DNA from: a virus
Lineage: Duplodnaviria; Heunggongvirae; Uroviricota; Caudoviricetes
Virus record (IMG/VR): IMGVR_UViG_3300035670_000071
Length of the DNA stretch: 64,000 nt
Strand: one strand, 5' to 3'
Shown here piece by piece: positions 8,402-33,900 of the stretch. The notes below the pieces were generated by a model. That model had not been told where the DNA came from and made no database searches. It saw nothing but the letters and a program-made list of their open reading frames with translations. The translations under genes and the position numbers were made by a program. The stretch's first letter is position 1. Each line of letters starts with the position of its first letter.

Positions 8402-8454
8402 TTTTGTTAACACAAAACTGAAGTAAATTTTTTATTTTTTTATTTATTTAGTTT

Positions 8455-9519: not shown

Positions 9520-9533
9520 TTGGGGGTAAGACA

Positions 9534-18012: not shown

Positions 18013-19608
18013 TTGAACCGCAATTTATCGGCGATGGAGGAAAATACAATGGCAAGATTTAATGCTAAAATATCAGAGTCTACAAAGACTACAAATCACG
18101 AAGGTGCAATAGCTTACAAGCTAACACCTGAACTTGAGCTATACGCTACAGTTTGCACTGCATCATTGCAGGACAAATTCTATGAAAAGGCAGATGAAAC
18201 TCTAACAAGAATCAGAGCTTTAATCAAGAAAGTCGACCCTATGTTCGTTGCTAAGTTAGCAGTCTACGCAAGGGAACAGATGTATCTTAGAAGCATTCCT
18301 TTAGTCCTTGTCATAGAACTGAACAAGCAGGTAGAAGACAAGTCTTTAATTGTCCCACTTACAAAGAGAGTCATCCAAAGAGCTGATGAGATTACAGAGC
18401 TTCTGGCATACTACCAGACAGCAAACCCTCAGAACGCTAAGGAAGTTAAGGGCAACAAGAAAAAGCTCTGCAAACTATCTAAAGCCCTATCTAAAGGCAT
18501 TGCAGAATCATTCCATAAGTTTGACGAATATCAGTTTGCTAAATACAATACTGATGGCGAAGTTAAGCTAAGGGACGCTCTGTTCTTGACGCACCCTAAA
18601 CCAATGAACCCAACAGAGGTTGCATTGTTCAAGAAGATTGCACAGGACACACTGGACACTCCTTACACTTGGGAAGTAGAATTGTCTACTGCCAAGGCTA
18701 AAGGCAAGGAGAAGAAACAAGTCTGGCAAGAACTTATTGATTCCAATAAGCTTGGCTATATGGCCCTATTGAGAAACCTGAGAAATATACTTCAGGAAGA
18801 TGTCTCAAAAGAGCATATGATTAAGGTAGCTAAAGCTATTTCCGACCCTGAACAGGTAAGGAAATCCAAGCAGCTTCCGTTCAGATTCCTATCGGCCTAC
18901 AAAGAACTTGCAGGTTCCGCAAAGAAACGAGGCTATTCAAGGTCTGATGATGAAACAAAAATCAACAGCCCTTACGTTAGCCTTATGCTTGACGCACTTG
19001 AGGACGCTATTGCTGTTTCAGCAGAGAACGTGCCTGGCTTCGGCTATGACACGAGCATCCTGATTGCATCAGACGTTTCAGGTTCAATGCAAAAGCCTGT
19101 ATCTGAAAAGAGTAAGATTGAGAACTATGATATAGGCTTGACGCTATCAATGGTATTGCAACACAGATGCAAGGTAGTCCAAACAGGTATCTTCGGTGAC
19201 TCCTTTAAGATAAAGGCACTCCCAAAGAAGGCTATATTGGCTAACGTGCTGAAGCTCTACGAAATTGAAGGCGAAGTCGGCTACTCAACAAACGGCTACA
19301 AGGTAATCAGACACCTTATTGAAACCAAACAAAAGGTTGACAAGGTAATGATTTTCACTGACTGCCAAATGTGGAATAGTGACGGCGATGGTAGCACTTT
19401 CGTAAAGGAATGGAACACATATAAGAGTTTCAACCCTTCAGCGAAGTTATACCTTTTCGACCTTAGCGGTTACGGCAATACTCCAATCTCTACAAGAGAG
19501 AAGGACGTTTACCTGATTGCGGGTTGGTCTGAGAAAGTCTTCGGTGTGCTTTCAGCACTCGAAGAGGGCAAGACTGCGATAGATGTAATCAACAAGGTGA
19601 CTCTATGA
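18013..19608 (+). CDS. Ro60/TROVE-domain ribonucleoprotein with C-terminal vWA domain (Rsr-like)
   Basis: TROVE-type N-terminal region (HEGAIAYKL...YAREQMYLRS) and a vWA MIDAS motif IASDVSGSM; the likely true start is the ATG near 18049 behind a GGAGGA ribosome-binding site. Confidence 0.8.
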   Translation: MNRNLSAMEENTMARFNAKISESTKTTNHEGAIAYKLTPELELYATVCTASLQDKFYEKADETLTRIRALIKKVDPMFVAKLAVYAREQMYLRSIPLVLVIELNKQVEDKSLIVPLTKRVIQRADEITELLAYYQTANPQNAKEVKGNKKKLCKLSKALSKGIAESFHKFDEYQFAKYNTDGEVKLRDALFLTHPKPMNPTEVALFKKIAQDTLDTPYTWEVELSTAKAKGKEKKQVWQELIDSNKLGYMALLRNLRNILQEDVSKEHMIKVAKAISDPEQVRKSKQLPFRFLSAYKELAGSAKKRGYSRSDDETKINSPYVSLMLDALEDAIAVSAENVPGFGYDTSILIASDVSGSMQKPVSEKSKIENYDIGLTLSMVLQHRCKVVQTGIFGDSFKIKALPKKAILANVLKLYEIEGEVGYSTNGYKVIRHLIETKQKVDKVMIFTDCQMWNSDGDGSTFVKEWNTYKSFNPSAKLYLFDLSGYGNTPISTREKDVYLIAGWSEKVFGVLSALEEGKTAIDVINKVTL

Positions 19609-19944: not shown

Positions 19945-20150
19945 TCGGGCTTTGAAATCCGCAAGGATTCCAGAGCTACGTCAAAGAAACAACCATCGTC
20001 TGCCACCTGATGTATGAGCGTGGTGAGCTGCAACCCTTCGGGGTTGGTGACCTCATAAGGACTCGAAAGAGCAGGTCACCCGTGGGATGCTCTGAACTCC
20101 CTGAACTTTACTGCCTTTTCCTATAGGCGAAAAGGCAACCTTTTTATATT
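19945..20150 (+). ncRNA. candidate structured ncRNA (Y-RNA-like) 1
   Basis: ORF-free stretch; UUCG-capped hairpin caacccTTCGgggttg; 8-bp helix ggtgacct/aggtcacc enclosing a GAAA tetraloop; ends in a hairpin plus T-run. Confidence 0.3.
20113..20146 (+). terminator. hairpin (gccttttc/gaaaaggc) followed by TTTTT
   Basis: 8-bp stem, 8-nt loop, oligo-T tract. Confidence 0.4.
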
Positions 20151-20164
20151 AGTTAGTATATCCT

Positions 20165-20400
20165 ATTGTTGCGTGACGTTGATGAGTGTTACTTCGCTCT
20201 GGACGAAACGGTCAGGGTTCGAATCCCTGGTGTCGCTTCGGCGGCATTGGTGTAATGGTAGCACGTTAAATACACTCGTCGCTTGTTTCCGCACTTCATA
20301 GTCACAGGATGACGTAATCAAGAGTTACTTCGAAAACCAAACACGATTTCACAAAGACTCTTGGTGACTATTTCTCCTTCTGACACCTAAAATGGTGGCG
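20165..20400 (+). ncRNA. candidate Y-RNA-like ncRNA 2 containing a tRNA-like module (YrlA-like)
   Basis: At 20213..20264: T-arm cagGGTTCGAATCCctg, then a 7-bp acceptor-like stem closed by a UUCG tetraloop, then a D-arm GTGTaatggtaGCAC; lies directly downstream of the Ro60 gene on the same strand. Confidence 0.4.
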
Positions 20401-20771
20401 TAGTTAAGAAATACATCGCAAAAAATGGTTCAAGCAAGGATTCTATCCTTACAATTTCTTAACGATTGTTCCCCAACTTTACTTTAACACACCACTTTGC
20501 CAAATAGCAAAGTTTAAATTATAGAATGATTATCATACATAATTGAGGGCTTAAATTGGGTAAGAAACAAACTTGGCGAGTAGAGATTCCTATCACTGGT
20601 AAACTACGTCTTCTTCAGAGGACTAACTATCTTGAGTTCGTCAAAGTGTATTCTAATCTGGTCCGAGACATTAGATTAAAAAATAAGACGAGGCAATAAT
20701 ATGTGGGAAGTGGTTGTCATAGGAATCTTTTGCGTCATAGGATTCGTTATAGTATGGTGGATTCTTGACTT

Positions 20772-21095
20772 TTGAGGTGTATAAAAATGGTGTTAGAAAA
20801 GGTTATCGAAACTTGGAAATGTCCATATTGCAATGAAGAATACGACGATGAACTTGATGCTGAAGCGTGTGCAGAAGAATGTGCCGACGTAGAAAGTCCA
20901 ATCGAAGATGAACGAACTGAATATTACTGCGAGATGTGCGGTAAGAAACATCGTGATTATAATTATGCCGAGACCTGTGAAGAACTTCATAGGAAAAAAG
21001 AAGACCGACATTTCATCAAATGGCAACACGACGAGGAAATGAAGAAACTGGCTAAGGCCGCAGCCCATCCAGGGCAAAAGAAATTAGTGGTGTAA
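20772..21095 (+). CDS. zinc-ribbon protein
   Basis: CPYC...CAEEC...CEMCGKKH. Confidence 0.4.
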   Translation: MRCIKMVLEKVIETWKCPYCNEEYDDELDAEACAEECADVESPIEDERTEYYCEMCGKKHRDYNYAETCEELHRKKEDRHFIKWQHDEEMKKLAKAAAHPGQKKLVV

Positions 21096-21323
21096 ATGAA
21101 ACTTTTAGAAGTCTCACTCGACAATACAACAAAGAATAAGATAACAATCAAGAAAGATAGGATATTCAAGAAGCTTAACTATACCGACAAACTTGATTTA
21201 CGAGATGCGTTAATGGACTTTTGCATTGAACTCAATACAGAAGTCAAACAAGAATTAAAACAAAAGGAGACGAACTATGAAAAAGAAAATACTCGAAGTG
21301 TTCTTCGACGAAAAAGAAAATGA
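21096..21323 (+). CDS. hypothetical protein
   Basis: ORF in the gene run. Confidence 0.3.
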   Translation: MKLLEVSLDNTTKNKITIKKDRIFKKLNYTDKLDLRDALMDFCIELNTEVKQELKQKETNYEKENTRSVLRRKRK

Positions 21324-21462
21324 AGTGACCATCATAGAGACCGCAGCTTTCGGGAAACTCGACAGCTCATCTCGAACAGACATCAAGACAGGATTCCTTG
21401 AATGGACCAATAAGACAAAGATTAATGATGTTGTAAAAAAACTTGCTGGAGGGAAAAAATGA
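21277..21462 (+). CDS. hypothetical protein
   Basis: ORF in the gene run. Confidence 0.3.
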   Translation: MKKKILEVFFDEKENEVTIIETAAFGKLDSSSRTDIKTGFLEWTNKTKINDVVKKLAGGKK

Positions 21463-21651
21463 AACTTGCCGTCAATGAAGTAACACATATTTTTTATCAC
21501 AGAAAGACATATACACTCGCTAAACTTAATGCTCTTGTTGAAGAAGCATTAGGCATAAAGAATTTTACCGAGAACAAGATGCGTCTGACAAAAGACCAAT
21601 ACGAAGTTGTCATCGGATTGCTCGACGTATTGTTGCATAAGGGGGAAGAAA

Positions 21652-21924
21652 ATGACAGAGATAAAACAGATTGCAGGACGGCACAAATGCGGGAAGAGAA
21701 TGGTAATGAGAATAACCGATTACAAGCAATCGGAAGAGCAACCAGACTCAACTCTGGGTTGGCTGATTTACGGAGTGTGTCAGAAGTGCGAAGTAATCCT
21801 GATGTCAGCGATATTCCAACAGAAGGAAGAACCGAGGATGAACATCGACTTTATGATAACTGATGAAGTAGCAAAAGAAGGAAAGGGAGACCCTTTTAAG
21901 AATATCAAAAAGGCAAGACATTGA
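21652..21924 (+). CDS. zinc-ribbon protein (internal start MTEIKQ)
   Basis: HKCGKR...CQKCEV; start trimmed to avoid the overlap with 21459.. Confidence 0.3.
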   Translation: MTEIKQIAGRHKCGKRMVMRITDYKQSEEQPDSTLGWLIYGVCQKCEVILMSAIFQQKEEPRMNIDFMITDEVAKEGKGDPFKNIKKARH

Positions 21925-22068
21925 ATATACGAAAGCCGTTATCTAAGGACCAGAGACCAATAGCAACAATCCTCTGGGGAAATATATTCGGCTATCTGAA
22001 GCAGATAGTCACGCTTAGAGGCTTTAAGAAAACACGCCGCTTCATCATCGTATACGAATATCCGAAAG

Positions 22069-22356
22069 GTGAAGGAGGCAAAGAAAATGAAAATTCTTTT
22101 GATAACTGAACCTTATTGGAATGCAGGAAGAGAATTTGGTTGGGACGGACAATTCAGCCAGATTGGTATTCCAATAGACATTCCATATATCAAAGGGGAA
22201 GGTTATCTGCACATACAAGTGCAAGGGAGACCAGACATTTGGGCAGTATCCAAAGCAAGAGCAAGAGCCATTGTGCTACATTACAAAGCATACAAAGTCA
22301 TCAACGGTGTAAAACATTGTGTTGTTCCTTGGGCAGCATTCAATAAGGTTATTTAG
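22069..22356 (+). CDS. hypothetical protein
   Basis: ORF in the gene run. Confidence 0.3.
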   Translation: MKEAKKMKILLITEPYWNAGREFGWDGQFSQIGIPIDIPYIKGEGYLHIQVQGRPDIWAVSKARARAIVLHYKAYKVINGVKHCVVPWAAFNKVI

Positions 22357-22364
22357 CCAAAATT

Positions 22365-22970
22365 ATGTGTGAAAAAATGAGAACTTTTAACATAGAATTA
22401 ACCCCATATGCAATATTAAAACAATCAGATAAGCCGTGGTTAAAATTTGAACTAAGCTATATATCATATGATTTACAAAAATATTGTTATACTCACCCAG
22501 ATATATCAAAACTAAAAGAACAAATAAAAACAAGAAGATATGGGGAATTAGGAAAATGTTTTTTATGTAAAGAAAAAAAATCTGATTTACAAAATCATCA
22601 TCTTGTGCCAAACTTAGAAATAGCAAATAATTTTTTTTTTAGAATAACTGAAGGATGTGTTGTTCCTTTATGTCATAACTGCCACAATAGTTCTTTTCTT
22701 CATCATTTAGATGATAATGATGTTTGCGAAGCTATTAAAATAAGAGAAGAAATGGATATATATATAAAAGAAATAAAAAAATTAATAGAAGAAATAAATA
22801 ATTCTGCATTGATAAAAATTAAAGACTTATCTTTATTAAAAAGTTTTGTTGAAAAATTTGTTGATTCAGCAATAAAACAAGAATTATCTATAGCCAATGA
22901 AATGTTTAATATAATAACAAATTCAATACCACAAAAAGAGACTCACAATGAAAAACAATTACATCAATAA
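22365..22970 (+). CDS. HNH endonuclease (very AT-rich, compositionally distinct)
   Basis: CFLCKEKK...NHHLVPN...CHNCHN. Confidence 0.6.
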   Translation: MCEKMRTFNIELTPYAILKQSDKPWLKFELSYISYDLQKYCYTHPDISKLKEQIKTRRYGELGKCFLCKEKKSDLQNHHLVPNLEIANNFFFRITEGCVVPLCHNCHNSSFLHHLDDNDVCEAIKIREEMDIYIKEIKKLIEEINNSALIKIKDLSLLKSFVEKFVDSAIKQELSIANEMFNIITNSIPQKETHNEKQLHQ

Positions 22971-23331
22971 TATAAAAAAAATTGGAAGTCGTTTACTTGA
23001 TTATAAAATATACATCAGTAGAGCAACAAGCTACATCGCCATTGTAAATACTGGAATGATTCTTATGTTGTTCCTTTCAAAACTGGAAGACTACGGAATT
23101 GATATCGAACTACAGAACTGGGGATTGCCTATCTATATATTCACACTGATAATGTGCATCTTCATAGGATACATTGATGTCAAGCTCGGGCTTTACAAGT
23201 CAGAAGTCAGTAAGACACAACAGCAGAATCCGCAGATGTTACATATGATGCAAGAACTGAAAGACATAAAAGAGGAGCTTAGAAAACAAAATGAAATCAA
23301 TGAAAGAAGAAATAATAAAAGGATTCGCTGA
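22948..23331 (+). CDS. hypothetical membrane protein
   Basis: Two TM helices. Confidence 0.35.
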   Translation: MKNNYINNIKKIGSRLLDYKIYISRATSYIAIVNTGMILMLFLSKLEDYGIDIELQNWGLPIYIFTLIMCIFIGYIDVKLGLYKSEVSKTQQQNPQMLHMMQELKDIKEELRKQNEINERRNNKRIR

Positions 23332-23406
23332 GACATATGGTAATGTTGTTGAAGTATTCACTAACAGACATCACTTCTGGTTTGAAAAGAAAAATAAATA
23401 AAAAAT

Positions 23407-23928
23407 TTAATCATCTTCTGATTCATAGTCAGCAATGATTTCAAGGAATCTCATTAGCATAGCTATTTCCATATCTGTCAAGATGATTCTGCTCGTGCAG
23501 AGATTCTTTCTCAACTGCTTCATATCAGACTTCACTTTCTTCCAATCTATACTATCATCAATAGTCAACTGGAAAGTGTGACCTCTCATATGCGGCGGTA
23601 GATGTTCGGAATCTGCTAATACGATAGCACGTTTCGCCCTGTGGAATCCTTGGTGACAAGTCTTACACAAAGTAAGGCAATTCCTTCCGCTATCCTTCCC
23701 TCCGTTCTTCTGGAACTTTACGTGGTGCAAAGTAAGATGAGACTCGGGGTATTTGCATTCGGTATTTTGGCACTTGAAGTTATCTCTCTGGAATACCTCT
23801 GCTTTGATAACATACTTATCATAGATTCTTTGTTTGAGTTCGCTTGTTAGTCTATCATAGCTTCCGCTATCCCAAGACTTAAAATACTCGTCCATTGATA
23901 CAACTTTCCTAAATACTTCATATGCCAT
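23407..23928 (-). CDS. HNH endonuclease
   Basis: KCQNTECKY...HHVKFQKNGG...CKTCHQGFH. Confidence 0.65.
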   Translation of the reverse strand: MAYEVFRKVVSMDEYFKSWDSGSYDRLTSELKQRIYDKYVIKAEVFQRDNFKCQNTECKYPESHLTLHHVKFQKNGGKDSGRNCLTLCKTCHQGFHRAKRAIVLADSEHLPPHMRGHTFQLTIDDSIDWKKVKSDMKQLRKNLCTSRIILTDMEIAMLMRFLEIIADYESEDD

Positions 23929-23963
23929 TCTTTCACCCTATGTTTTCCTCCATTCCTCTTTTA

Positions 23964-24039
23964 TGAGCTGGACGGGATTTGAACCCGCAGCCACTCGATT
24001 AAAAGTCGAGTGCTCTAAACCAGGTTGAGCTACCAGCCC
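23964..24039 (-). tRNA. tRNA-Lys(UUU)
   Basis: Hand-folded cloverleaf; anticodon loop CTTTTAA; T-arm GCGGGTTCAAATCCCGT. Confidence 0.7.
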
Positions 24040-24042
24040 GTA

Positions 24043-24115
24043 TACCCGCACTGAGATTCGAACTCAGATTTGACGGTCCGAAGCCGACTGGACTTGTCCC
24101 TTATCCTATGCGGGT
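24043..24115 (-). tRNA. tRNA-Arg(UCG), putative
   Basis: Anticodon loop CTTCGGA with one U-U mismatch in the stem; canonical T-arm. Confidence 0.5.
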
Positions 24116-24821
24116 GTTGCCTTTCTCTGCTTCCAACATATTTACTAACTGATACACACCTGTCAATCCACCATATTCGTTACGTTCTATCCGACCTATT
24201 TTGGCTAAATTATATGTCGACAGTGTATCAAGGAATCGTTGTTTATAGACAAAGCTGATGCTCAGATATATGCTCTCTGCATTCAGCTCCTTCATATATT
24301 CATTGATTCGTTTGAACCAGTGCGTTATTTCATTGTCACGTATACGACTGAAACGTGCAGCCGATTGTCCTCCTTTCTTATGTTTGTGTGGCACTTCGCT
24401 GTGGATGTCGATGAGCTTTTTTATCTCTCCATCACTCATAACCTGTGCCCCGTAACATTCTTCAAGGTCGATGATTAATATTGTATACATCAGAGACGGC
24501 TCTCCACCGAATGTGAGAAGTTCCTTTCCACAATAATAATGCTTTGTCTTTCGCTTGTAAGGCTCTACTGTGAAATTCTCATCATCCCAAAAGAGACTAA
24601 CTCCAGATATACCAGGGTTGGAACTAAAGATAGTGTGCTATCTTATTGAGTCCCGTAAGTGTTTCGATACGGGTCTTGTTATCTTTTATGTTCCGTGCAG
24701 AACATATCTCTTTTCCAATGTCTGGTGCGTCTGCACCAACTGGTATGTGCATACTTATCATTTTCGTTCCTCCATATATTTTAGTGGACAGACTGGGATT
24801 TGAACCCAGGTTCTCTCGCAT
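24101..24821 (-). CDS. eRF1/aRF1-type peptide chain release factor (N and GGQ domains only), split across two frames at a CUU-UAG site
   Basis: N-part GTKMISMHIPV and CSARNIKDNKTR resemble the eRF1 motifs GTSMISLIIPP and TASNIKSRVNR. After a +1 shift at UAUCUUUAGU the frame stays open through YYCGKELLTF to KKGGQSAARFSRIR, which resembles eRF1 GRGGQSALRFARLR. Confidence 0.6.
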
Positions 24822-24858
24822 ATCAGGCGAGTGCGTTAACCAACTTTGCTATCTGTCC
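24785..24858 (-). tRNA. tRNA-Ile(GAU)
   Basis: Anticodon loop CTGATAT; canonical T-arm and acceptor; weak D-stem. Confidence 0.65.
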
Positions 24859-24860
24859 GA

Positions 24861-24931
24861 TGGGAATACTGAGAGTCGAACTCAGGGCTTCTGGTCTGGA
24901 GCCAGATAGGTTGCCACTACCCCATATCCCC
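24861..24931 (-). tRNA. tRNA-Trp(CCA)
   Basis: Anticodon loop CTCCAGA. Confidence 0.65.
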
Positions 24932-24932
24932 T

Positions 24933-25008
24933 TGGTGCCGCCGACGGGATTCGCACCCGTGTCCCGACATCGAAAGTGTCGGATGATTGGCTTCTACACT
25001 ACGGCGGC
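24933..25008 (-). tRNA. tRNA-Glu(UUC), CCA encoded
   Basis: Anticodon loop CTTTCGA; T-loop TGCGAAT, which carries G55. Confidence 0.65.
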
Positions 25009-25011
25009 GTA

Positions 25012-25084
25012 TGGAACCGTCGGGATTTGAACCCGAACCAATAAGGCTTCAGCCTATCGCACTCCCAGGTTATGCTACAGTTCC
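25012..25084 (-). tRNA. tRNA-Phe(GAA)
   Basis: Anticodon loop CTGAAGC. Confidence 0.7.
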
Positions 25085-25086
25085 AA

Positions 25087-25162
25087 TGGTGGGGCTGGGC
25101 GGATTCGAACCGCCGTCTCAGGTTCCAAAGACCTGAATGATTGGCCACTACACTACAGCCCT
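25087..25162 (-). tRNA. tRNA-Gln(UUG), CCA encoded
   Basis: Anticodon loop CTTTGGA; A1-C72 mismatch. Confidence 0.6.
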
Positions 25163-25169
25163 ATGTTGA

Positions 25170-25241
25170 CGCTGGTGACGGGAATTGAACCCGTGTCCCG
25201 AAGTAGACAGCCTCGGATGATAGCCACTACACCACACCAGC
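25170..25241 (-). tRNA. tRNA-Asp(GUC)
   Basis: Anticodon loop CTGTCTA; G73. Confidence 0.65.
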
Positions 25242-25244
25242 ATA

Positions 25245-25317
25245 TGGGGATGAGAGGATTTGAACCCCTGTCGAGTGGTCCCAAACCACTAATGCTTCCA
25301 AGCTACACCACATCCCC
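25245..25317 (-). tRNA. tRNA-Pro(UGG)
   Basis: Anticodon loop TTTGGGA. Confidence 0.7.
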
Positions 25318-25318
25318 G

Positions 25319-25392
25319 TGGTCTGCACTGCCTGAGTTGCACAGGCCTCCTCTGGGTTACAGCCAGTTGGCACACTCCGTGCCTTAGTGCAG
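25319..25392 (-). tRNA. tRNA-Tyr(GUA), short variable arm (type I), CCA encoded
   Basis: Anticodon loop CTGTAAC; 4-nt variable region; T-loop TGCAACT, which carries G55. Confidence 0.55.
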
Positions 25393-25397
25393 GTAAA

Positions 25398-25469
25398 CAC
25401 CCGTGCTGGGAATTGAACCCAGATTTAGAGGTTAGAAGCCTCCTGTCTTATCCTTTGGACGACACGGGT
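25398..25469 (-). tRNA. tRNA-Arg(UCU)
   Basis: Anticodon loop CTTCTAA. Confidence 0.6.
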
Positions 25470-25472
25470 ATA

Positions 25473-25549
25473 TGGGTTACAGGACGGGAGTTGCACCCGC
25501 TTCACCAGTTCCACAGACTGGTATGCTTTGCTGTTACACCACCTGTAAC
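25473..25549 (-). tRNA. tRNA-His(GUG) with encoded G-1 and CCA
   Basis: Anticodon loop CTGTGGA; G-1 pairs with C73; T-loop TGCAACT. Confidence 0.65.
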
Positions 25550-25579
25550 ATTGTCCGATGTTTTTATTTACGCATTCGA

Positions 25580-25671
25580 TGCACCTGCTGGGAGTCGAAC
25601 CCAGGGTCTCACGGAATCTTCGCCGTGAAATGGCATATAAGCCGTGTGCCTTACCACTTGGCCACAGGTGC
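25580..25671 (-). tRNA. tRNA-Ile(UAU) with a 20-nt intron-like insert at the anticodon loop
   Basis: Canonical acceptor, D and T arms; anticodon stem CACGG / CCGTG separated by CTTATAT plus a 20-nt insert that repeats CACGG. Confidence 0.5.
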
Positions 25672-25674
25672 AAA

Positions 25675-25747
25675 TGCGGATGTCGGGATTTGAACCCAAA
25701 CAAACTGCTTGGAAGGCAGTTGTGCAACCAGGTAACACTTCATCCGC
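25675..25747 (-). tRNA. tRNA-Gly(UCC), discriminator A73
   Basis: Anticodon loop CTTCCAA. Confidence 0.7.
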
Positions 25748-25750
25748 ATA

Positions 25751-25822
25751 TGGGCGAAGCAGGAGTTGAACCTGCGTCCTCCTCTTTGTAAGAGAGGTGT
25801 CATACCGTTAGACCACACGCCC
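25751..25822 (-). tRNA. tRNA-Val(UAC)
   Basis: Anticodon loop CTTACAA. Confidence 0.6.
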
Positions 25823-26143
25823 TTTATAGGTTAGCCTACTCTTGATAATTGTTCATAGAATTTGCAATCCAGAATTTTATTCTGGTATTGTTGCTCAAAT
25901 CAAATGTGTTTAGAAATTCTGAATCGCAAACCTTTGGGAACAATCACCATTGATATTGAAACGGCCTTCCGACTATTACGATGCCTGTTTCTCTATCCTG
26001 ATGTTTTACCAGTGTTTGATTCATAGTGAGTATGATTATGCAGGTTATATATAAAGTTTTCTTTTTGGAAACCCAAAGGGCACTTCCTAAGAAGCACCCC
26101 GTGGGAAAAGAGGTGATTCTATAGTTTATGTCATAGCTTGTAT

Positions 26144-26156
26144 TTATATATATTTT
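26144..26156. promoter_or_regulatory. TTTATATATATTT TATA-like motif
   Basis: Member of the recurring AT 15-mer family found in intergenic regions. Confidence 0.3.
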
Positions 26157-26160
26157 TCTA

Positions 26161-26244
26161 CGCTGAGAAGGGGAGTCGAACCCCCATATCCATTCCTGGA
26201 CGGCACCTTAGCAGAGTGCTGGGCCACCATTACCCAATCTCAGC
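26161..26244 (-). tRNA. tRNA-Ser(GCU), type II
   Basis: Anticodon loop CTGCTAA; long variable arm; G73. Confidence 0.7.
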
Positions 26245-26396
26245 ATTAATCTTTCAATGGTAGATGATGAATGATGCTATCTTCAGGCAGTGGCTCACGG
26301 AACCACATATGTATCTTGTTTTCTTTGAAGGCTCTAACTACTGCGGAGTCATCGTCTTTAAATTCAAAGTCATCTGGACCATCCTCGTCTACCATA

Positions 26397-26480
26397 CGCT
26401 GTGAGCAGGATTCGAACCTGCGACACACTTCCGTGTGCGATGGTTTTCAGGACCATTTGCTCACCATTCGCCTTCACAGC
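26397..26480 (-). tRNA. tRNA-Ser(UGA), type II, putative
   Basis: Anticodon loop CCTGAAA; long variable hairpin CACAC-GGAA-GTGTG. Confidence 0.55.
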
Positions 26481-26486
26481 ATTATA

Positions 26487-26571
26487 TAGGGGGTAAGGGA
26501 TTTGCACCCTTGTATTACCTACGTAAACCAGATTTTGAGTCTGGTGCGTTTGACTACTCCGCCAACCCCCT
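26487..26571 (-). tRNA. tRNA-Leu(CAA), type II
   Basis: Anticodon loop CTCAAAA; long variable arm; T-loop TGCAAAT. Confidence 0.65.
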
Positions 26572-26576
26572 ATGAA

Positions 26577-26661
26577 TACGGGGAGAGAGATTTGAACTCT
26601 CGTAGCACCTATGTGCAACAGCTCTTAAGGCTGCCTCGTTTGACCACTCCGACATCCCCGT
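26577..26661 (-). tRNA. tRNA-Leu(UAA), type II
   Basis: Anticodon loop CTTAAGA; long variable arm. Confidence 0.65.
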
Positions 26662-26666
26662 ATAAG

Positions 26667-26739
26667 CGGTGAGGGTGAGACTCGAACTCACAGTTCCTTG
26701 GTTAACGGCCAAGAGCCTTACCTGTTTGGCCACCTCACC
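26667..26739 (-). tRNA. tRNA-Asn(GUU), putative
   Basis: Anticodon loop CCGTTAA, with C33. Confidence 0.55.
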
Positions 26740-26744
26740 AATAG

Positions 26745-26815
26745 AGGTCCATCTGGGACTTGCACCCAGGTTTTGTGGGTTGCAGCCACACGCCTTGCTA
26801 CTTGGCCAATGGACC
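26745..26815 (-). tRNA. tRNA-Cys(GCA)
   Basis: Anticodon loop CTGCAAC; U73; T-loop TGCAAGT. Confidence 0.65.
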
Positions 26816-26818
26816 ATA

Positions 26819-26893
26819 AGCCGTCGACGGGATTTGAACCCGCATAGACCTCTTTACAGGAGAGGTGCCTCAGCCGAGTTAGACTACGACGGC
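26819..26893 (-). tRNA. tRNA-Thr(UGU), putative
   Basis: Anticodon loop CCTGTAA; enlarged D-loop. Confidence 0.5.
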
Positions 26894-26898
26894 ATATA

Positions 26899-26971
26899 TG
26901 GACACTGCGGGAATCGCACCCGCCGCCTCCTGTGTGCAAGACAGGCGTTCTACCTTATGAACTAAGTGCCC
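26899..26971 (-). tRNA. tRNA-Ala(UGC)
   Basis: Anticodon loop CTTGCAC; G3-U70 identity pair present; T-loop TGCGATT. Confidence 0.7.
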
Positions 26972-26977
26972 TTTGGA

Positions 26978-27062
26978 TACGGGAAGCAGGATTTGAACCT
27001 GCGTATCACCTACGTGAACTTGGTCCTAAGCCAAGTGTGTTTGACCGCTCCACCATTCCCGT
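26978..27062 (-). tRNA. tRNA-Leu(UAG), type II
   Basis: Anticodon loop CTTAGGA; long variable arm. Confidence 0.65.
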
Positions 27063-27075
27063 GTTAAATAAATGA

Positions 27076-27176
27076 TACCGATGGGCGGATTTGAACCGCC
27101 AAATCTCAAGGTTATGAGCCTTGCGGGATGCGAACTTTTACATTCTCCAAGTTACCCTACATCGGTATATTAAGTC
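27076..27176 (-). tRNA. tRNA-Met(CAU)-like with an extra segment of about 25 nt in the D-arm (possible non-canonical intron or pseudo-tRNA)
   Basis: Acceptor ACCGATG/CATCGGT, anticodon loop CTCATAA and T-arm GGCGGTTCAAATCCGCC are canonical, but the D region is about 27 nt too long. Confidence 0.4.
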
Positions 27177-28026
27177 AGAAATTGTTGCCAAAAAATCTTT
27201 AGAGATTATTTTGGTCTTAAATTGTTGGTATTGAACTTTCAGAAATTTTAGCAACAACGTCGGACTAATTGGCCAATGTGAGACTTGACAGTAAATTGGT
27301 TGCTGTCGTTCCCGCCAAATTACACATTCCGTTTGAGTTGTTGTGTTGCATTTTAGGTTAATCACCCATTATGGTATATGTAGAATAATCGAACTCATAT
27401 ATATAGTTTTTGGTCATCGCCGTAAATATAGAATTGAGAGTTAGGAAATGACTCACTATACAGGTCACGACATCTTCGAGCCTCACCTAAATCATTAAAG
27501 GATTGCATCACTTTGCCTATATCGGTAACGATATAGTATCTTACTTTAGTATTCCGACTTTCGATTTGGCTACACCTGGAGGCTGTATCAACTTCACTAC
27601 ATATTCCACATCTGGATTGCAGTTCCTTTTTTGTTTGAGAAGTTTAATATGATGAGCATCCCTAAAGCTATGATAATCTTGACTTTCCCACGTTATCGTC
27701 TTTTTCTGCAAGACTTCTAAAACTTTGTATGTATCCATTTTATTATGAAGGGAGTTCCGCCCTCTGCTACATAGGCTGGGTAAGACAGTTGAGGTTCTGC
27801 CAGAAGTTGACCATACATAACAGAGGTCTGCGGCCCCATTTTAAGTATTCAATATCTTCTGTAATTCTGCTTTGTATTCTGGGTCTTCTATCATTGGGGT
27901 CATATCTATTACCCGAGCACAATACCCACATCTTGTTATGCCAACTTTATCAACTGCAATAAGTATTATCTTATTTTTTGATAATAAGCATTGATGTATA
28001 TCCTCAAATCTTTTCATTGAAGAGCC

Positions 28027-28329
28027 TCATTTCTTTCTCTTTGTTATGGTCTTCTTCCGCTTTACTTTACGTCTTACTAACTTTTTTCTTTTCTTCTTAT
28101 TCGTATGCAACCATTTCGTTGTCCAATAAATAAGAAGAGTAGCGACAAGCGTAGTGACCACTGCCGTCATATAGCCATTACCTGCAATGCCAAATTTGGC
28201 GAGAAACCGATTGAGCGTAGCTGCAATCGGCTCTCGCCAACTAAGGCCAACAAGCAATGCCAATCCTGCTGTTATTCCTGTATACGCTTGTCCCTTAAAC
28301 TCTTCCTTAATGTCGTCCAATATCCGCAT
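28027..28329 (-). CDS. membrane protein with a highly basic K/R-rich C-terminal tail
   Basis: Two TM helices, then KKKRKKLVRRKVKRKKTITKRKK. Confidence 0.45.
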   Translation of the reverse strand: MRILDDIKEEFKGQAYTGITAGLALLVGLSWREPIAATLNRFLAKFGIAGNGYMTAVVTTLVATLLIYWTTKWLHTNKKKRKKLVRRKVKRKKTITKRKK

Positions 28330-28367
28330 TCGTTTCCCTTAATTGCCCTTGTTCTCAGAATAAAGAA

Positions 28368-28463
28368 TTACTTCTTTTTCTTCGAACTCTTGTTTTTCTT
28401 TGATACTTTTGCCTTAACTACAACTTTAGCTTTGGCTTCTACTTTCGATTTCTTTTTTGACAT
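28368..28463 (-). CDS. lysine-rich micro-protein (31 aa, MSKKKSKVEAKAKVVVKAKVSKKNKSSKKKK)
   Basis: Hand-translated; GGAGGCGG ribosome-binding site 5 nt upstream of the ATG. Confidence 0.45.
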   Translation of the reverse strand: MSKKKSKVEAKAKVVVKAKVSKKNKSSKKKK

Positions 28464-28477
28464 ATGTCCGCCTCCAT

Positions 28478-28525
28478 TTACTTTTTCTTTGGTGGTGTCT
28501 TTTTTGATACTGGTTTCTTTGCCAT
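28478..28525 (-). CDS. lysine-rich micro-protein (15 aa, MAKKPVSKKTPPKKK)
   Basis: GGAGGTGA ribosome-binding site upstream. Confidence 0.4.
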   Translation of the reverse strand: MAKKPVSKKTPPKKK

Positions 28526-28549
28526 ATATTCACCTCCGTTATGTTTTAT

Positions 28550-28618
28550 CTATTTTCTTTTTACTGGTTTGCCAGTAATAGGATGTGTTGGTTTTGTTTT
28601 TGGATTTACTTTAGCCAC
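28550..28618 (-). CDS. lysine-rich micro-protein (22 aa, GTG start, AKVNPKTKPTHPITGKPVKRK)
   Basis: GGAGG ribosome-binding site overlaps the end of the upstream gene; start codon is GTG. Confidence 0.3.
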   Translation of the reverse strand: MAKVNPKTKPTHPITGKPVKRK

Positions 28619-29156
28619 TTTTATTTACCTCCGTCGGTTCATCTGCATCAAAGACATCTTCGAAATCATCTATTGTCTTTGACACATCAGTCTTCTCTTG
28701 TGATACGGCAGAGGTTTCCTCTACAGTTTCAACTGTTAGTTTCACTGGTTTATTGTCCTTAAAATGTTCAAATAATTCTGGATGTGCTTTGCATACTTTC
28801 TGTCCTAATACGTTGATTAAAAACCAACTTCTGCTCTTTACAACTTCGATTTTTGCCATTGTTTTTTCCCTCACTTGTTTGTATACTTTCTTTGCCTTGC
28901 CATAGAATACTATCGCACTATCTCTTAGTATCCCATATTTCCTCAAGCACCAAGACTTCCAATACGCCACTTGTTTGACATCGATAATGATAGTCGGCGG
29001 TTCTGGTTTTTTGAAAACATTCCTAATTGCCTCTTTTGGAATATGAAATGGACTGCTTTCATCTCTGCAATTTTCGCAATACACATAGATATGTTGTCCA
29101 ATATGTAATGTGATAATTTTTCCTTTGCAGAGTCTACACCTATATTCATTCGGCAT
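28611..29156 (-). CDS. zinc-ribbon protein
   Basis: N-terminal CRLCKG...CENCRD. Confidence 0.45.
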   Translation of the reverse strand: MPNEYRCRLCKGKIITLHIGQHIYVYCENCRDESSPFHIPKEAIRNVFKKPEPPTIIIDVKQVAYWKSWCLRKYGILRDSAIVFYGKAKKVYKQVREKTMAKIEVVKSRSWFLINVLGQKVCKAHPELFEHFKDNKPVKLTVETVEETSAVSQEKTDVSKTIDDFEDVFDADEPTEVNKSG

Positions 29157-29383
29157 TCCATACCCTATACTTACCCATTATTTTATAAGTCCATATTACA
29201 TTTAGTATTTAAATGTAACGCCTTATACCCACAATATGGGCATACAACGCCTGACTTTTCTTGACCACATCTTTGGCACGGCATAGTTTACATTCTCCCA
29301 TTTACTGAAAAGGAAAGAATTATTTCCTCATTTTCTACCCAGTTCTTTCAACATATGCTTTTCAGTTTTTGAAAATAAAAAAT

Positions 29384-29524
29384 TTATTTTTTGAGTATGT
29401 TCCCAACTACCTTTTCTGCATAGCCTTCTCCGACTTTACATTTAGGGCAGAACTTTTTACTCTTCGCAGCCTTTCCACATTTAGGGCAAGACCATTTTTC
29501 ATTTTCTAATTTTGGTAATACCAT
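29384..29524 (-). CDS. zinc-ribbon miniprotein (46 aa)
   Basis: Hand-translated MVLPKLENEKWSCPKCG...CPKC; AGGAGG ribosome-binding site. Confidence 0.35.
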   Translation of the reverse strand: MVLPKLENEKWSCPKCGKAAKSKKFCPKCKVGEGYAEKVVGNILKK

Positions 29525-29536
29525 CTTGTGTTCCTC

Positions 29537-31675
29537 CTAAAAATTTATTTTCTTACCAAACCCAATTTTGTTTGGTATCTGATTATTAACTCTTTGTTGT
29601 GTGAATGATGTATTCTGTTGAGCCTTTCCTGCATTGCCATTTGTGAATGGATTATTAACTTGCATCTGTGGAACTCTTTGAGCTTGTCTTTGTGCTTTTG
29701 CTTCCTGTCTTGCTTCTCTATCTCTCGCCGCAGCTCCTCTTTGTATATTAGCAAACTGCATCTGTTTTATTCCAGCTTGTCTTCTTACTGCTGCTCTTTG
29801 TGCAGGTGTCGCACCCTGATATTTTACAGAATATGCTTTTACCCAAGTATCGTATACTTTCTGTGATTGTTCTTTATTTGATGATTCATAAAATTTAGGA
29901 ACTATACTTCCTGGTGATGTTGCTGTCGGGAAATCATATCCATATACATCCCAAGTATCATCAGCGTCGTCATAGAAATCTACTGCGAATCCTGTTCCTC
30001 TTTGTGAATTAACTAATGTTGCACCACGCTTCATATAGTTTCGCATAACTGCTTTCTTCTGAGCCATAGTTCCCTTGTTAAAACTATGCTGGTCTGCTCC
30101 ACCACCTGGTCCTGCATTGACTCCAGTTGAACCTCTATATGATGGCATATTTGCGAACTCTTTAGGAATAAGATTTCCATTCTCATCAAGTTTCCAGAAT
30201 CTTCCTTCCTCTTTAACTGGTAATCCTTGAGCCTGTCTTAATGCTCTAACTTCTGCAAGTTGAGCAAGAATTTCTGGTGAAAGAACAAATCCTTCTCCAT
30301 CACTATCTGGAATAAATTGCATATTTCCTTTAGCACCCATTGTAGATTGTGCAAATAAATTTTCTACTTTTGATGATGGTTCATAACTTCTTGTTTCAAT
30401 TCTTATATCAGATAAAGCTCTTGTTGGTGCTGCTGCAAGTAAAGCATCCGCCTCTGCCGCACTTAATGTTTCATCAACGAAATACTGAGCATAATTTTCA
30501 TCAAAGAATGTATTATAAGAATCCATTGTTCCGCCTGAACCAGCTATTGCTTGTTCAATCTTAGTTGAAGAAACAGGAGCATAAGGGTCTGTATTTGTCC
30601 CACCACCTGAAAGCAATGAAAAACCAGAACCTATACTTGATGTTGGTTCATATGATTTTGGCAACTCTGTAGCCACTGCTGGGGCATCAGCTAATGTATT
30701 ATCTAACATACCTTGTATATCTGTTGTTCCTTCAAGTAAAGAAGTCTCTGTAGTCGCTGTCATCATTGATGCATCTGCAAATAATGTAGATGGTTCACTG
30801 CTTAACACACTCGGCTCTGATGCTAATGCTGTCGTTGGAGTAGCATAAATATTTGATAATAATCTTGTAGTTCCTTCAGCAAGACCAGAGGTTGTTGTCT
30901 CTGTAGATGGTAATGATGTTGATAAAAAATCAGTATTCGTAGTTGGTAATTCCTGTGTTAAAAACGTTGAAGGTTCTGACGCAAAAGTTAATGTCTCTGG
31001 TGCTGTTGAAGATTCTATAGACACCCCTGACACATTTATTGGTTCAAGTGTTGGAAGTGGTGCTTCAGAAGTATAAGACGACATAGTAGAAAGCTTTAAT
31101 CTTGAATCTGCCGCAGCTTGTCTTTCTGCTGCAAGTTCTGCAGGAGTTTTCTCTGGTGTGACATTCAATAATGAAACAGAATTTTCAAGATTTGTTCCAA
31201 GTGTATTCAAAGAATTTGATGCTATATCTCCAAGAACGTCTCCTGTATCAACAACTTGTGTTTGTGTTGCTGCAGGAAAATAACTTGTTTGCCCAGCTAA
31301 TGCTTGTTCTTCAGCAAGTATTTCTTCTGGTGTTTTTTCTGTTGTCGTTCCAGCAGATGCCATATATTCCGTCTTAACAGAATCCATCTGTTGTTCAAGA
31401 GCTGCTGCTCTTGCACGTGCATCTGCCGCAGCTTGTCTTTCAGCTTCTAATTTTGCAGCTTGTTCAGCAGCTAATCTTTCAGCTTCTTTTCTTGCTGCTT
31501 CTTCCTCTTGAAATTTCTTTAAAGCTGCTGCCTCTGCTAATGCTGCTTTTTCTTCTTCAGAATAAGACTGTTGAGGTGATGAAGTTGAGACTGATGTCGA
31601 TAGTTGTGATGATGCAGACGAGGATTGAACCTGTCTTTCGCTTCTTCTCTCTTTGAATCTATCGAAAAATCCCAT
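29537..31675 (-). CDS. 712-aa protein with N-terminal coiled coil and long S/T/Q-rich low-complexity region
   Basis: EA-rich coiled coil KKFQEEEAARKEAERLAAEQ; remainder is low complexity. Confidence 0.55.
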   Translation of the reverse strand: MGFFDRFKERRSERQVQSSSASSQLSTSVSTSSPQQSYSEEEKAALAEAAALKKFQEEEAARKEAERLAAEQAAKLEAERQAAADARARAAALEQQMDSVKTEYMASAGTTTEKTPEEILAEEQALAGQTSYFPAATQTQVVDTGDVLGDIASNSLNTLGTNLENSVSLLNVTPEKTPAELAAERQAAADSRLKLSTMSSYTSEAPLPTLEPINVSGVSIESSTAPETLTFASEPSTFLTQELPTTNTDFLSTSLPSTETTTSGLAEGTTRLLSNIYATPTTALASEPSVLSSEPSTLFADASMMTATTETSLLEGTTDIQGMLDNTLADAPAVATELPKSYEPTSSIGSGFSLLSGGGTNTDPYAPVSSTKIEQAIAGSGGTMDSYNTFFDENYAQYFVDETLSAAEADALLAAAPTRALSDIRIETRSYEPSSKVENLFAQSTMGAKGNMQFIPDSDGEGFVLSPEILAQLAEVRALRQAQGLPVKEEGRFWKLDENGNLIPKEFANMPSYRGSTGVNAGPGGGADQHSFNKGTMAQKKAVMRNYMKRGATLVNSQRGTGFAVDFYDDADDTWDVYGYDFPTATSPGSIVPKFYESSNKEQSQKVYDTWVKAYSVKYQGATPAQRAAVRRQAGIKQMQFANIQRGAAARDREARQEAKAQRQAQRVPQMQVNNPFTNGNAGKAQQNTSFTQQRVNNQIPNKIGFGKKINF

Positions 31676-31856
31676 TTTTATTTACCTCACTTTTTCTTTT
31701 TTGATGGAAGTGTTCTCCAAGCTTCATACGTCTTTGTGCCTACCTTATATGTTCCGACAGCAAATCGTCTACCACTCTTTGTAACTTCCTTGACATTCGA
31801 ATTAGGAATGCTAACTTTCTTTTTCAATACTACAGAATAAAATTCAGTTGAACCGC

Positions 31857-33893: not shown

Positions 33894-33900
33894 TGTCTTC

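Follow-up and report, generated by a model that had tools for sequence, protein, structure and literature searches.

A minus-strand tRNA array and its archaeal features

We analysed a 64,000-nucleotide (nt) stretch of DNA, IMG/VR record IMGVR_UViG_3300035670_000071 (the whole stretch is referred to here as the window), with a focus on an array of transfer RNA (tRNA) genes at 23964..27166 in which a gene for a short release factor of the archaeal/eukaryotic type (mini-aRF1) is embedded. The array comprised 25 tRNA genes, all on the minus strand, in line with the number of about 25 proposed in a sequence-only reading of this DNA, and the anticodons listed in that reading were those called by ARAGORN and Rfam. 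Default ARAGORN called 23 of the 25 genes, and 23 were also matched by the domain-neutral tRNA model of Rfam, RF00005 (minus strand, 23964..27062), with scores of 38–70 bits relative to a gathering score of 29. The other two were recovered using relaxed settings together with comparative support: tRNA-Tyr(GUA) received no default ARAGORN call and no Rfam match even at E ≤ 10, and was found with ARAGORN at a 90% threshold (-ps90), while tRNA-Met(CAU) scored 24.8 bits in Rfam, just under the gathering score (its ortholog at the related locus L006 scored 33 bits). All 25 genes were parsed arm by arm, and genes mislabelled by the ARAGORN intron search (e.g., the window Met gene as ‘Tyr i(32,6)’ and a Gln gene of locus L036 as ‘Stop(tta)’) were corrected by hand.

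The first gene of the array encodes tRNA-Met(CAU) (27076..27166). It is followed, within 26486..27062, by tRNAs Leu(UAG), Ala(UGC), Thr(UGU), Cys(GCA) (26744..26815), Asn(GUU), Leu(UAA) and Leu(CAA) (26486..26572), and then by Ser(UGA) (26396..26481) and Ser(GCU) (26160..26245). Beyond a 337-nt spacer lie Val(UAC) (25751..25822), Gly(UCC) (25674..25748), the Ile(UAU) precursor (25580..25671), His(GUG) (25473..25548, with an encoded G-1 at 25549), Arg(UCU) (25397..25470) and Tyr(GUA) (25319..25392), as well as, within 24784..25317, Pro(UGG), Asp(GUC), Gln(UUG), Phe(GAA), Glu(UUC) (24933..25008), Trp(CCA) and Ile(GAU). The mini-aRF1 gene comes next, and Arg(UCG) (24043..24115; Rfam 53 bits) and Lys(UUU) (23964..24039; Rfam 70 bits) form the promoter-distal end.

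Those features of the array that appeared odd for a bacteriophage are archaeal. In the window, tRNA-Tyr(GUA) has a 7-bp acceptor stem, a 4-nt variable region (type I), C1-G72, A73 and an encoded CCA, as well as A8 and the T-loop TGCAACT. Nine distinct Tyr(GUA) sequences were available from the family of related loci described below, all of which folded as 70–72-nt type I tRNAs. In their alignment, 96.8% of cells paired and 17 of 21 pairs showed compensatory change, a value that was reached in 0 of 500 shuffles and from which slid registers were also far off. C1-G72 and A73 were each present in 9/9 orthologs, while acceptor pairs 2–7 all varied. A short variable arm with C1-G72 is the identity set of archaeal and eukaryotic tyrosyl-tRNA synthetases, and bacterial tRNA-Tyr has a long arm and G1-C72; the single bacterial tRNA-Tyr among the fetched loci, on a Lachnospiraceae contig, was 84 nt long, consistent with a long-arm type II tRNA. 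Thus, the arm parse, the nine orthologs and the covariation all bear out the type I tRNA-Tyr that had been proposed from the window. The same holds for A73 of tRNA-Gly, for which bacteria use U73 as the discriminator: it was found in the window, where this tRNA also has A8, and in Gly(UCC) of 7/7 distinct relatives. The arm-by-arm parse further agreed with the sequence-only reading in that tRNA-Ala has the G3-U70 pair, tRNA-His has an encoded G-1 opposite C73, and Glu, Gln, Tyr and His are the only genes with an encoded CCA; tRNA-Gln of the window also has A1.C72. Across the family, an encoded G-1 with C73 is found in the majority of His genes and A1-U72 in the majority of Met(CAU) genes, and Gln genes have A1 in all cases.

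The tRNA-Ile(UAU) precursor (92 nt; Rfam 61.8 bits) is made up of exon 1 (25636..25671), a 20-nt insert (TGCCATTTCACGGCGAAGAT; 25616..25635, minus strand) and exon 2 (25580..25615). The insert had been placed in the anticodon loop at or next to position 37/38, and its exact location proved to be between positions 37 and 38. We applied a purpose-written scan for the helix-bulge-helix-bulge-helix motif to this precursor, in which the canonical 37/38 register ranked first. The outer helix (CACGG/CCGTG, 5 bp) is the anticodon stem, the 5′ bulge is U36-A37-U, with the last U being the first intron base, and the 3′ bulge is A-U-U38, formed by the final two intron bases and U38. The central helix brings C32-U33-U34-A35 (CUUA) together with GAAG in three pairs and an A35.G mismatch, which sets C32 opposite intron position -3, a pairing also seen in known precursors, and the inner helix (GCC/GGC, 3 bp) is closed by a 7-nt loop. 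When the 20 intron bases were shuffled, the same motif quality was obtained in the fixed register in ~0.6% of trials (P about 0.006). Excision of the insert yields a canonical 72-nt tRNA that ARAGORN calls tRNA-Ile(tat).

The motif was kept in diverged orthologs. At L006 the Ile(UAU) intron is 16 nt long (TGCCACTGGCGGAGAT) and retains all elements of the splice motif; relative to the window, a 4-nt deletion is limited to the terminal loop and an A-to-G change turns a U-A pair into U.G. The intron at L016 is 18 nt long with the same bulges and helices, and the Ile(UAU) genes of L035 and L038 have no intron and normal loops. Across the family, motif-guided excision restored a canonical tRNA for 10 precursor tRNAs with introns of 16–69 nt, covering Ile(UAU), Ile(GAU), Arg(UCG), Arg(UCU), three Leu(UAG), Gln(UUG) and Gly(UCC). 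On the basis of sequence and its conservation, the Ile(UAU) insert is an archaeal-type bulge-helix-bulge intron at 37/38 for which cleavage is predicted. Weighing against this assignment, the central helix is A/U-rich with just three Watson-Crick pairs plus A35.G, it is absent from the RNAfold minimum-energy fold of the isolated arm, and the L033 intron (18 nt, with a one-nucleotide asymmetry) fails the strict scan and fits only a relaxed motif. No splicing endonuclease or ligase gene was found among the scanned open reading frames (ORFs) of the window.

It is very unlikely that the insert is instead part of a long variable arm, or the mark of a pseudogene. Default ARAGORN did fold Ile(UAU) with a 6-nt anticodon loop and a long extra arm (TCACGG/CCGTGA), leaving the tRNA unnamed, and the RNAfold minimum-energy fold of the full precursor contains the extra-arm hairpin. 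However, this pairing needs the repeat of the anticodon-stem sequence CACGG within the insert, which the sequence-only reading had pointed out and which is present in the window and absent from the L006 ortholog, where the splice motif stays whole. The long-variable-arm fold was rejected on these comparative grounds. The intron-less orthologs with normal loops and the canonical product of excision also speak against it, as does codon usage, since AUA is the commonest Ile codon (46%) and Ile(UAU) is its sole reader in the set.

The tRNA-Met(CAU) gene carries a real insert in its D region, as had been claimed, but this amounts to ~15 extra nt (14–18) rather than 25, and the 5′ end of the gene, at 27166, lies 10 nt inside the earlier coordinate. 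The D region is 33 nt long in the window compared to 15–19 nt in relatives lacking the insert, and the D-loop is 25 nt long (23–25 nt across orthologs). Orthologs with the insert at L006 (13567..13657), L033 (7384..7474) and L034 (1119..1206) have D regions of 30–33 nt, while at least five other family members are normal. Following the G18-G19 region, the insert can form mini-hairpins of 3–4 bp, GAAU/GUUC in the window and UCC/GGA, GAC/GUC and AGC/GCU in the orthologs. Acceptor-stem changes between orthologs are compensatory, which indicates that the gene is under selection as a tRNA. It is the sole CAU tRNA of the window, with an initiator-like A1-U72 and an anticodon stem that has two G-C pairs, versus the three expected of an initiator, and a conserved A29-U41. 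Strict and relaxed scans of the window, L006, L033 and L034 yielded no consistent bulge-helix-bulge register in the D-loop insert; the best candidates had weak scores and lay in different registers in the four orthologs, and a spliced intron was therefore rejected for lack of a shared register. We regard the insert as a conserved extra D-loop hairpin that is possibly retained in the mature tRNA.

The mini-aRF1 gene and a tRNA elbow variant

The mini-aRF1 gene (24101..24761, minus strand) was delimited using Pfam eRF1_2, its translation, alignment, and AlphaFold2 with Foldseek. An eRF1-like gene had been noted here before; its aRF1/eRF1 type stands, but the ORF then seen (24101..24490) is only the downstream part of a longer gene. 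The upstream part, ORF1 (24624..24761, minus strand), has 45 codons, includes the NIKS-like motif SARNIKD and ends with TAT CTT TAG. ORF2 is in the +1 frame, runs down to a stop codon at 24101..24103 and carries the GGQ motif within HKKGGQSAARF. The junction reads TAT CTT TAG T (24632..24623), the +1 frame is open from this slip site into the GGQ-containing ORF, and the fused product of 219 amino acids (aa) aligns gaplessly across the junction to the uninterrupted homologs P0018 and P0023. In ~25 loci of the family the slip site has the form NUU UAG (mostly CTT TAG, also ATT TAG and TTT TAG, with one CTT TAA), ORF2 is in the +1 frame in all of them and ORF1 always holds SA(R/K/N)NIKD. The slip site occurs at either of two alternative positions within the family, after HYL or after GL. 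No Shine-Dalgarno-like stimulator was found 3 nt 5′ of the slip site in the upstream sequence AAGATAGCACACTAT.

Several lines of comparison placed the product among the aRF1/eRF1 proteins. It matched Pfam eRF1_2 (6e-10), its PDB sequence matches were aRF1/eRF1, and its YxCxxxF-like YYCGKEL aligned with YLCDNKF of S. pombe eRF1. The AlphaFold2 model had a predicted local distance difference test (pLDDT) score of 84, and Foldseek returned eRF1/aRF1 as best matches (E = 2e-13), ahead of Pelota, Balon and Vms1. The N domain is shortened and had no Pfam eRF1_1 match; the protein stops after the M domain and had no match to Pfam eRF1_3 (C domain). It is 219 aa long versus 360–440 aa, and the cellular homologs P0055–P0060 have all three domains. 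Both sequence and structural model therefore identify mini-aRF1 as a predicted aRF1/eRF1-type protein with N and M domains and without a C domain. Since matches of this ORF include acVLRF1 and baeRF_family10, Pfam families of bacterial eRF1-like proteins, an eRF1-fold protein alone is no proof of an archaeal host. The last five codons and the stop codon (24101..24115) lie within the 5′ part of tRNA-Arg(UCG), as they do in L006; thus, excision of this tRNA would remove the stop codon from the messenger RNA.

By analogy with known systems, we predict that mini-aRF1 is a UAG-sensing, self-limiting release factor. It would be made only when ribosomes shift +1 at CUU UAG, and the frameshift would tie its synthesis to the efficiency of UAG termination, as for bacterial RF2. 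Within an incomplete coverage of the literature, we found no paper describing such a frameshifted, C-domain-less release-factor gene in archaeal viruses.

A further peculiarity of the tRNAs concerns the elbow. Of 187 distinct well-folded family tRNAs, 33 had G rather than U at T-loop position 55 (T-loop UGC). The D-loop carried AG in place of GG in 30 of these 33, whereas 138 of the 154 U55 tRNAs kept GG (Fisher P = 9e-20), which, read from sequence, is a coupled change of the tertiary elbow contact from G18:U55 to a putative A18:G55. Within the window, A18:G55 is found in Glu, His, Leu(CAA) and Cys, and Ala and Tyr have G55 with GG kept. The variant was spread over amino acids and not bound to any one of them (window and L006–L043).

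Viral nature and probable host of the family

Searches of phage collections returned no relatives. Positions 20000..32000 of the window had no megablast match to 50,697 phage records, tblastn of a 935-aa protein and the eRF1-like protein against phage records gave none either, and a scan of IMG/VR with the eRF1-like protein found no relative. Exact-protein look-ups with the Ro60 ORF and a 500-aa ORF were also negative, probably owing to differing start calls. An exact look-up of the eRF1-like protein retrieved four contigs, one identical to the window and three 90–98% identical, and a homology search with a permease encoded in the window revealed a second clade at ~70–79% protein identity, whose locus L006 holds the entire array. 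An alignment of release-factor homologs was then used to scan metagenomes of the Joint Genome Institute (JGI), which added 33 further family loci (L011–L043; 45–99% identity), most with tRNA arrays adjoining the release-factor gene; the family also includes contigs from other public assemblies. An identical permease was found on a 106,575-bp contig, indicating that the genome is large (at least 106 kb).

Virion genes were recognised in relatives. L030 and L035 share the tRNA/mini-aRF1 module and encode a terminase and a portal; the terminase large subunit matched phrog_38 in L035 (1e-47), and an intein with LAGLIDADG interrupts the L030 copy (7441..10161). Relatives with this module also encode a Mu-like portal, an MCM-like protein and an XPB-like helicase with an intein (L019 10946..13216). 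Because these relatives carry terminase and portal genes alongside the same module, the family was considered to consist of tailed viruses.

Clues to the host came from a cluster of genes for an AMP-binding protein, an NMT1-like binding protein, an ATP-binding cassette (ABC) permease and an ATPase (32582..36107, minus strand). The only named close homologs of the permease were in a Nanohaloarchaea metagenome-assembled genome (MAG; 61%) and a Nanobdellota MAG (48%), and a scan of one genome per GTDB species recovered the same two MAGs (60% and 47%), with bacteria next at ≤28%. The cluster is found in L005–L010, L090 and L091, and its gene order is common to the virus and to DPANN-like cellular contigs, among them the cellular-looking L008–L010. 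A peptidase U32 gene joins the cluster in L008–L010 and in the viral relatives L005–L007, and was not detected in the window. The use of tRNA-Ile(UAU) in place of a modified CAU tRNA is the solution adopted by Nanoarchaeum and fits a DPANN host. Positions of TATA boxes and Shine-Dalgarno motifs upstream of window genes fit archaea but are not decisive. The samples of the cellular-looking contigs L008 and L009 originated from a South China Sea cold seep (PMC9357000).

In combination, the transporter homologs, the tRNA identity set, the introns and the aRF1-type factor make an archaeal host very likely. The suggestion, made in the sequence-only reading, of a host with archaeal-type translation is supported by these independent lines, namely the archaeal tRNA identity elements, the Ile(UAU) intron, the aRF1/eRF1-type factor and the permease homologs. 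A DPANN host, to which the one gene cluster points, is the best guess. Overall, we are fairly confident that a tailed archaeal virus with a large genome (at least 106 kb) has its translation module in this region, that the virus is most likely one of DPANN archaea related to Nanohaloarchaeota or Nanobdellota, and that the tRNAs look archaeal because they belong to such a virus. Several points count against this interpretation. The host assignment draws on one transferred gene cluster, and the matching MAG contigs are short (5–10 kb) and could have been assigned to the wrong bin. With PHROGs and Pfam, none of the capsid, portal and terminase genes was recognised in the 64-kb window, a capsid protein was identified neither in the window nor in its relatives, and virus status depends on relatives at 47–53% mini-aRF1 identity. 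Finally, the Tyr and Met genes score below the default thresholds of ARAGORN and Rfam alike.

The alternative that fares best, although we consider it improbable, is an archaeal virus of a non-DPANN host (a halophilic, methanogenic or marine euryarchaeon) that exchanged the transporter cluster independently. The host is indeed inferred from a single gene cluster, and the known tRNA-rich archaeal viruses infect Halobacteria (PMC13532342, PMC8651126). However, the permease is 60% identical to DPANN homologs with no other archaeal lineage among the matches, the cluster has the same gene order in the virus and in the cellular-looking L008–L010, and the guanine-plus-cytosine (GC) content of the family (27–39%) fits the L008–L010 contigs and not Halobacteria. 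The Nanoarchaeum-like use of tRNA-Ile(UAU) also argues for DPANN.

There is a smaller chance that the element is archaeal but not a virus, i.e., a plasmid, an integrative element or a piece of DPANN chromosome with a tRNA array, as might be suggested by the tyrosine integrase, the ABC-transporter genes and the surface-protein-like ORF of 4044 aa in a window with no recognisable virion gene. Against this, terminase and portal genes lie within a few kb of the same tRNA/mini-aRF1 module in relatives, and the window holds no cellular housekeeping genes and is crowded with HNH genes and with small ORFs that have no annotation. Moreover, a near-complete tRNA set is squeezed into 3.2 kb, which is typical of viruses and not of archaeal chromosomes.

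We see next to no chance that the window belongs to an ordinary bacteriophage in which the tRNA array looks archaeal only by coincidence, having drifted or being deliberately aberrant (e.g., to evade host anticodon nucleases). Arrays of tRNA genes with HNH endonucleases, SLT-type transglycosylase domains such as that in the window, and Shine-Dalgarno-like motifs such as those upstream of most window genes all occur in phages too, the window Ro60 gene matches the PHROG family phrog_850, and there are the acVLRF1 and baeRF_family10 matches of the release-factor ORF. Against a phage stand a type I tRNA-Tyr whose C1-G72 is invariant in nine diverged orthologs while every other acceptor pair varies, and whose sole bacterial counterpart among the fetched loci has a type II length, and bulge-helix-bulge introns at 37/38 in 10 family tRNAs, given that, to our knowledge, bacteria have no endonuclease that cuts such introns. 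The best structural matches of mini-aRF1, the DPANN homologs of the transporter, relative to which bacterial ones reach only ≤28%, and the lack of any match in the phage records or IMG/VR likewise argue against a phage. The deliberately odd tRNA set that the sequence-only reading had offered as its alternative is unsupported. A eukaryotic giant virus was rejected in view of the encoded His G-1, the CCA encoded in some tRNAs, the Shine-Dalgarno motifs, the phage-type terminase and portal in relatives, and the DPANN affiliation of the nearest cellular homologs.

With regard to other genes, Pfam matches in the window comprised Ro60/TROVE, SLT, Band 7, two phosphoesterases, two HNH, a tyrosine integrase, AMP-binding and the three-gene ABC transporter. 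The Ro60/TROVE gene (18013..19608, plus strand) is followed downstream by a putative YrlA-like Y RNA (~20170..20293, plus strand), recognised from structure and covariation. It has a long closing helix, a tRNA-like T-arm GGUUCGAAUCC, a UUCG-capped acceptor-like stem and a D-arm, an architecture that we take to be that of bacterial YrlA Y RNAs; 15 of its 37 pairs show compensatory change relative to L012 and L023, and the Rfam YrlA model did not match it. The 4044-aa ORF (48401..60535, minus strand) has a single domain match, DUF2341, and is followed by several large ORFs (891, 935 and 731 aa) without a family match; the minus-strand ORFs of 712, 731, 891 and 935 aa had no match in PHROGs or Pfam. 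The 4044-aa ORF and the large ORFs that follow it may encode surface, adhesin or tail proteins. Directly downstream of the array, a gene for a 173-aa HNH endonuclease (23407..23928, minus strand; Pfam HNH) is kept next to tRNA arrays in at least nine related loci at 35–62% identity (tblastn), a conservation more stable than expected of a roaming homing endonuclease. At ~22000..24000 the GC skew and gene orientation switch, with plus-strand genes to the left and minus-strand genes to the right, and the tRNA array forms the start of the minus-strand arm of the window.

Predicted decoding by the array and comparison with known systems

The 25 anticodons amount to a non-redundant minimal decoder that covers all 61 sense codons if U34 reads four-codon boxes, and only UUG is read twice. 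Each four-codon box would be served by a single U34 tRNA and the split boxes by tRNAs with G34 or U34, and the set also holds Leu(CAA), Ile(UAU), Met(CAU) and Trp(CCA). When codon usage of the element was compared with the tRNA set, the two matched, with A/U-ending codons preferred: in addition to AUA among Ile codons, AGA made up 64% of Arg codons, and NNA was commonest in the Ala, Gly, Pro, Thr and Ser four-codon boxes, with Leu and Val preferring NNU. The GC content of the DPANN-like cellular contigs (30–39%) is similar to that of the virus family (27–39%), and for this reason codon compensation is not clearly needed. As GC content is host-like and the set is complete and not selective, the array probably serves to make viral translation independent of the host tRNA pool rather than simply to compensate for codon usage. 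Such independence could matter during host shut-off, under tRNA-targeting defence, or in hosts with a limited tRNA supply.

The array is likely to comprise several transcription units, as it is interrupted by the spacer, by an ORF between the Ser genes and by the release-factor gene. The spacer (25823..26159, minus strand), assessed by sequence reading, comparison with L006 and nhmmer, has a G+C-rich hairpin followed by a T-run, and in L006 the equivalent position is occupied by a corresponding hairpin with another sequence. A TTTATATA box lies ~23 nt 5′ of a 26-codon ORF that is conserved, and a further ~100 nt of the spacer are conserved but non-coding. Matches of nhmmer to the spacer were confined to close relatives; it is probably a terminator/promoter boundary. 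The other ORF (26246..26395, minus strand) encodes a conserved, acidic 49-aa protein, sits exactly between Ser(UGA) and Ser(GCU), and is called as a gene in L003–L006.

We propose that the genes are transcribed as a few polycistronic units, the precursors of which would be cut by host RNase P and RNase Z. The host CCA-adding enzyme would complete the 21 tRNAs without an encoded CCA, and the host splicing endonuclease and RtcB ligase would take out the 20-nt Ile(UAU) intron. Host archaeal aminoacyl-tRNA synthetases would charge the viral tRNAs, and such charging would explain the archaeal identity elements (C1-G72 and the short variable arm of Tyr, A73 of Gly, G-1:C73 of His and G3.U70 of Ala). 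These proposals for processing, splicing and charging are based on the identity elements of the genes and on the features absent from them. The outcome would be a tRNA set that keeps viral translation independent of the tRNA pool of the host.

We put forward, as a tentative and at present rather doubtful generalization, that the window represents a family of tailed viruses of archaea (probably of DPANN) that is widespread but undescribed and has a self-contained decoding kit: a minimal tRNA set for 61 codons, many introns, A18:G55 in about one-sixth of the tRNAs, and a GTPase-independent mini-aRF1 autoregulated by an RF2-like +1 frameshift at UAG. If true, the release-factor feedback circuit would have arisen at least three times (in bacteria, giant eukaryotic viruses and archaeal viruses), and the structural marks might let the virus tell its own tRNAs from those of the host, or shield them from host tRNA-targeting enzymes. 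The array offers a compact natural minimal tRNA set for the whole code, and the occurrence of predicted protein-spliced tRNA introns as a common trait of a viral lineage bears on whether introns protect tRNA genes or serve modification. A release factor that is encoded midway through the array and has a conserved frameshift switch would provide a third, independent setting for the RF2 feedback mechanism, and mini-aRF1 makes it testable how aRF1 works without its GTPase-binding domain. In the A18:G55 covariation, nature provides a clean experiment on the tRNA elbow. Moreover, very little is known of the viruses of DPANN archaea, to which this family could offer useful access.

The bacterial RF2 gene has the autoregulatory +1 frameshift site CUU UGA C. 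Eukaryotic giant viruses have a similar arrangement, in that the eRF1-like factors of Mimivirus and Megavirus have CUU UAG C and CUU UAA C frameshift motifs, respectively, of which that of Mimivirus was shown experimentally (PMC3521657). The mini-aRF1 gene shares with both that it encodes a class-I release factor, has CUU before an in-frame stop codon, uses an NUU-U slip codon and continues in the +1 frame downstream. It differs in that it specifies a 219-aa, C-domain-less aRF1 in an archaeal virus, with no upstream Shine-Dalgarno-like stimulator and no second read-through stop, and in that the family has two alternative slip positions and some members without the frameshift. Compared to cellular aRF1/eRF1, mini-aRF1 retains GGQ, the NIKS-like NIKD, the YxCxxxF-like YYCGKEL and the folds of the N and M domains, but it is about half as long, with a short N domain, and is without the C domain, through which the partner GTPase (aEF1-alpha or eRF3) is bound.

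The predicted Ile(UAU) intron resembles known archaeal 37/38 introns (PMC4090602) in position, in having two 3-nt bulges around a 4-position helix with flanking helices, in its variable loop length and in the pairing of nucleotide 32 with intron nucleotide -3. In contrast to those, it is virus-encoded and very short (16–20 nt), and the central helix has a conserved A35.G or A35.A mismatch that is forced by the UAU anticodon. In phages, tRNA arrays (T4, T5 and large phages) have been proposed to match codon usage and to allow escape from host tRNA depletion (PMC10264068, PMC7162821). The present array is like these phage arrays in its tight packing of tRNA genes, its interspersed HNH genes and small ORFs and the roles that can be proposed for it, whereas it has archaeal identity elements and introns of the protein-spliced type, and no bacterial features.

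The closest precedents are two archaeal viruses, HGTV-1, with 34–36 tRNAs of which one has an intron (PMC13532342, PMC8651126), and the nanohaloarchaeal virus DNTV-1, with 29 tRNAs for 19 amino acids (bioRxiv 10.1101/2025.02.15.638363). As in these viruses, a large tRNA complement is carried on an archaeal tailed-virus genome with other translation and RNA-repair genes nearby; as in HGTV-1 there is at least one intron-bearing viral tRNA, and as in DNTV-1 the virus appears to be a DPANN-infecting example. Unlike HGTV-1 and DNTV-1, the present virus had no sequence similarity to any record of the phage collection and has a low GC content, its set serves all 20 amino acids with a minimal and non-redundant choice of anticodons, and predicted introns are common across its family (Ile, Arg, Leu, Gln and Gly tRNAs). 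It also has a release-factor gene embedded in the array, for which we found no report in HGTV-1 or DNTV-1. The array as such therefore extends a phenomenon already known from archaeal tailed viruses, and what goes beyond these precedents is the minimal complete set, the frequency of predicted introns across a viral family, the embedded C-domain-less release factor with its putative frameshift, the A18:G55 variant and the expanded D-loop of tRNA-Met.

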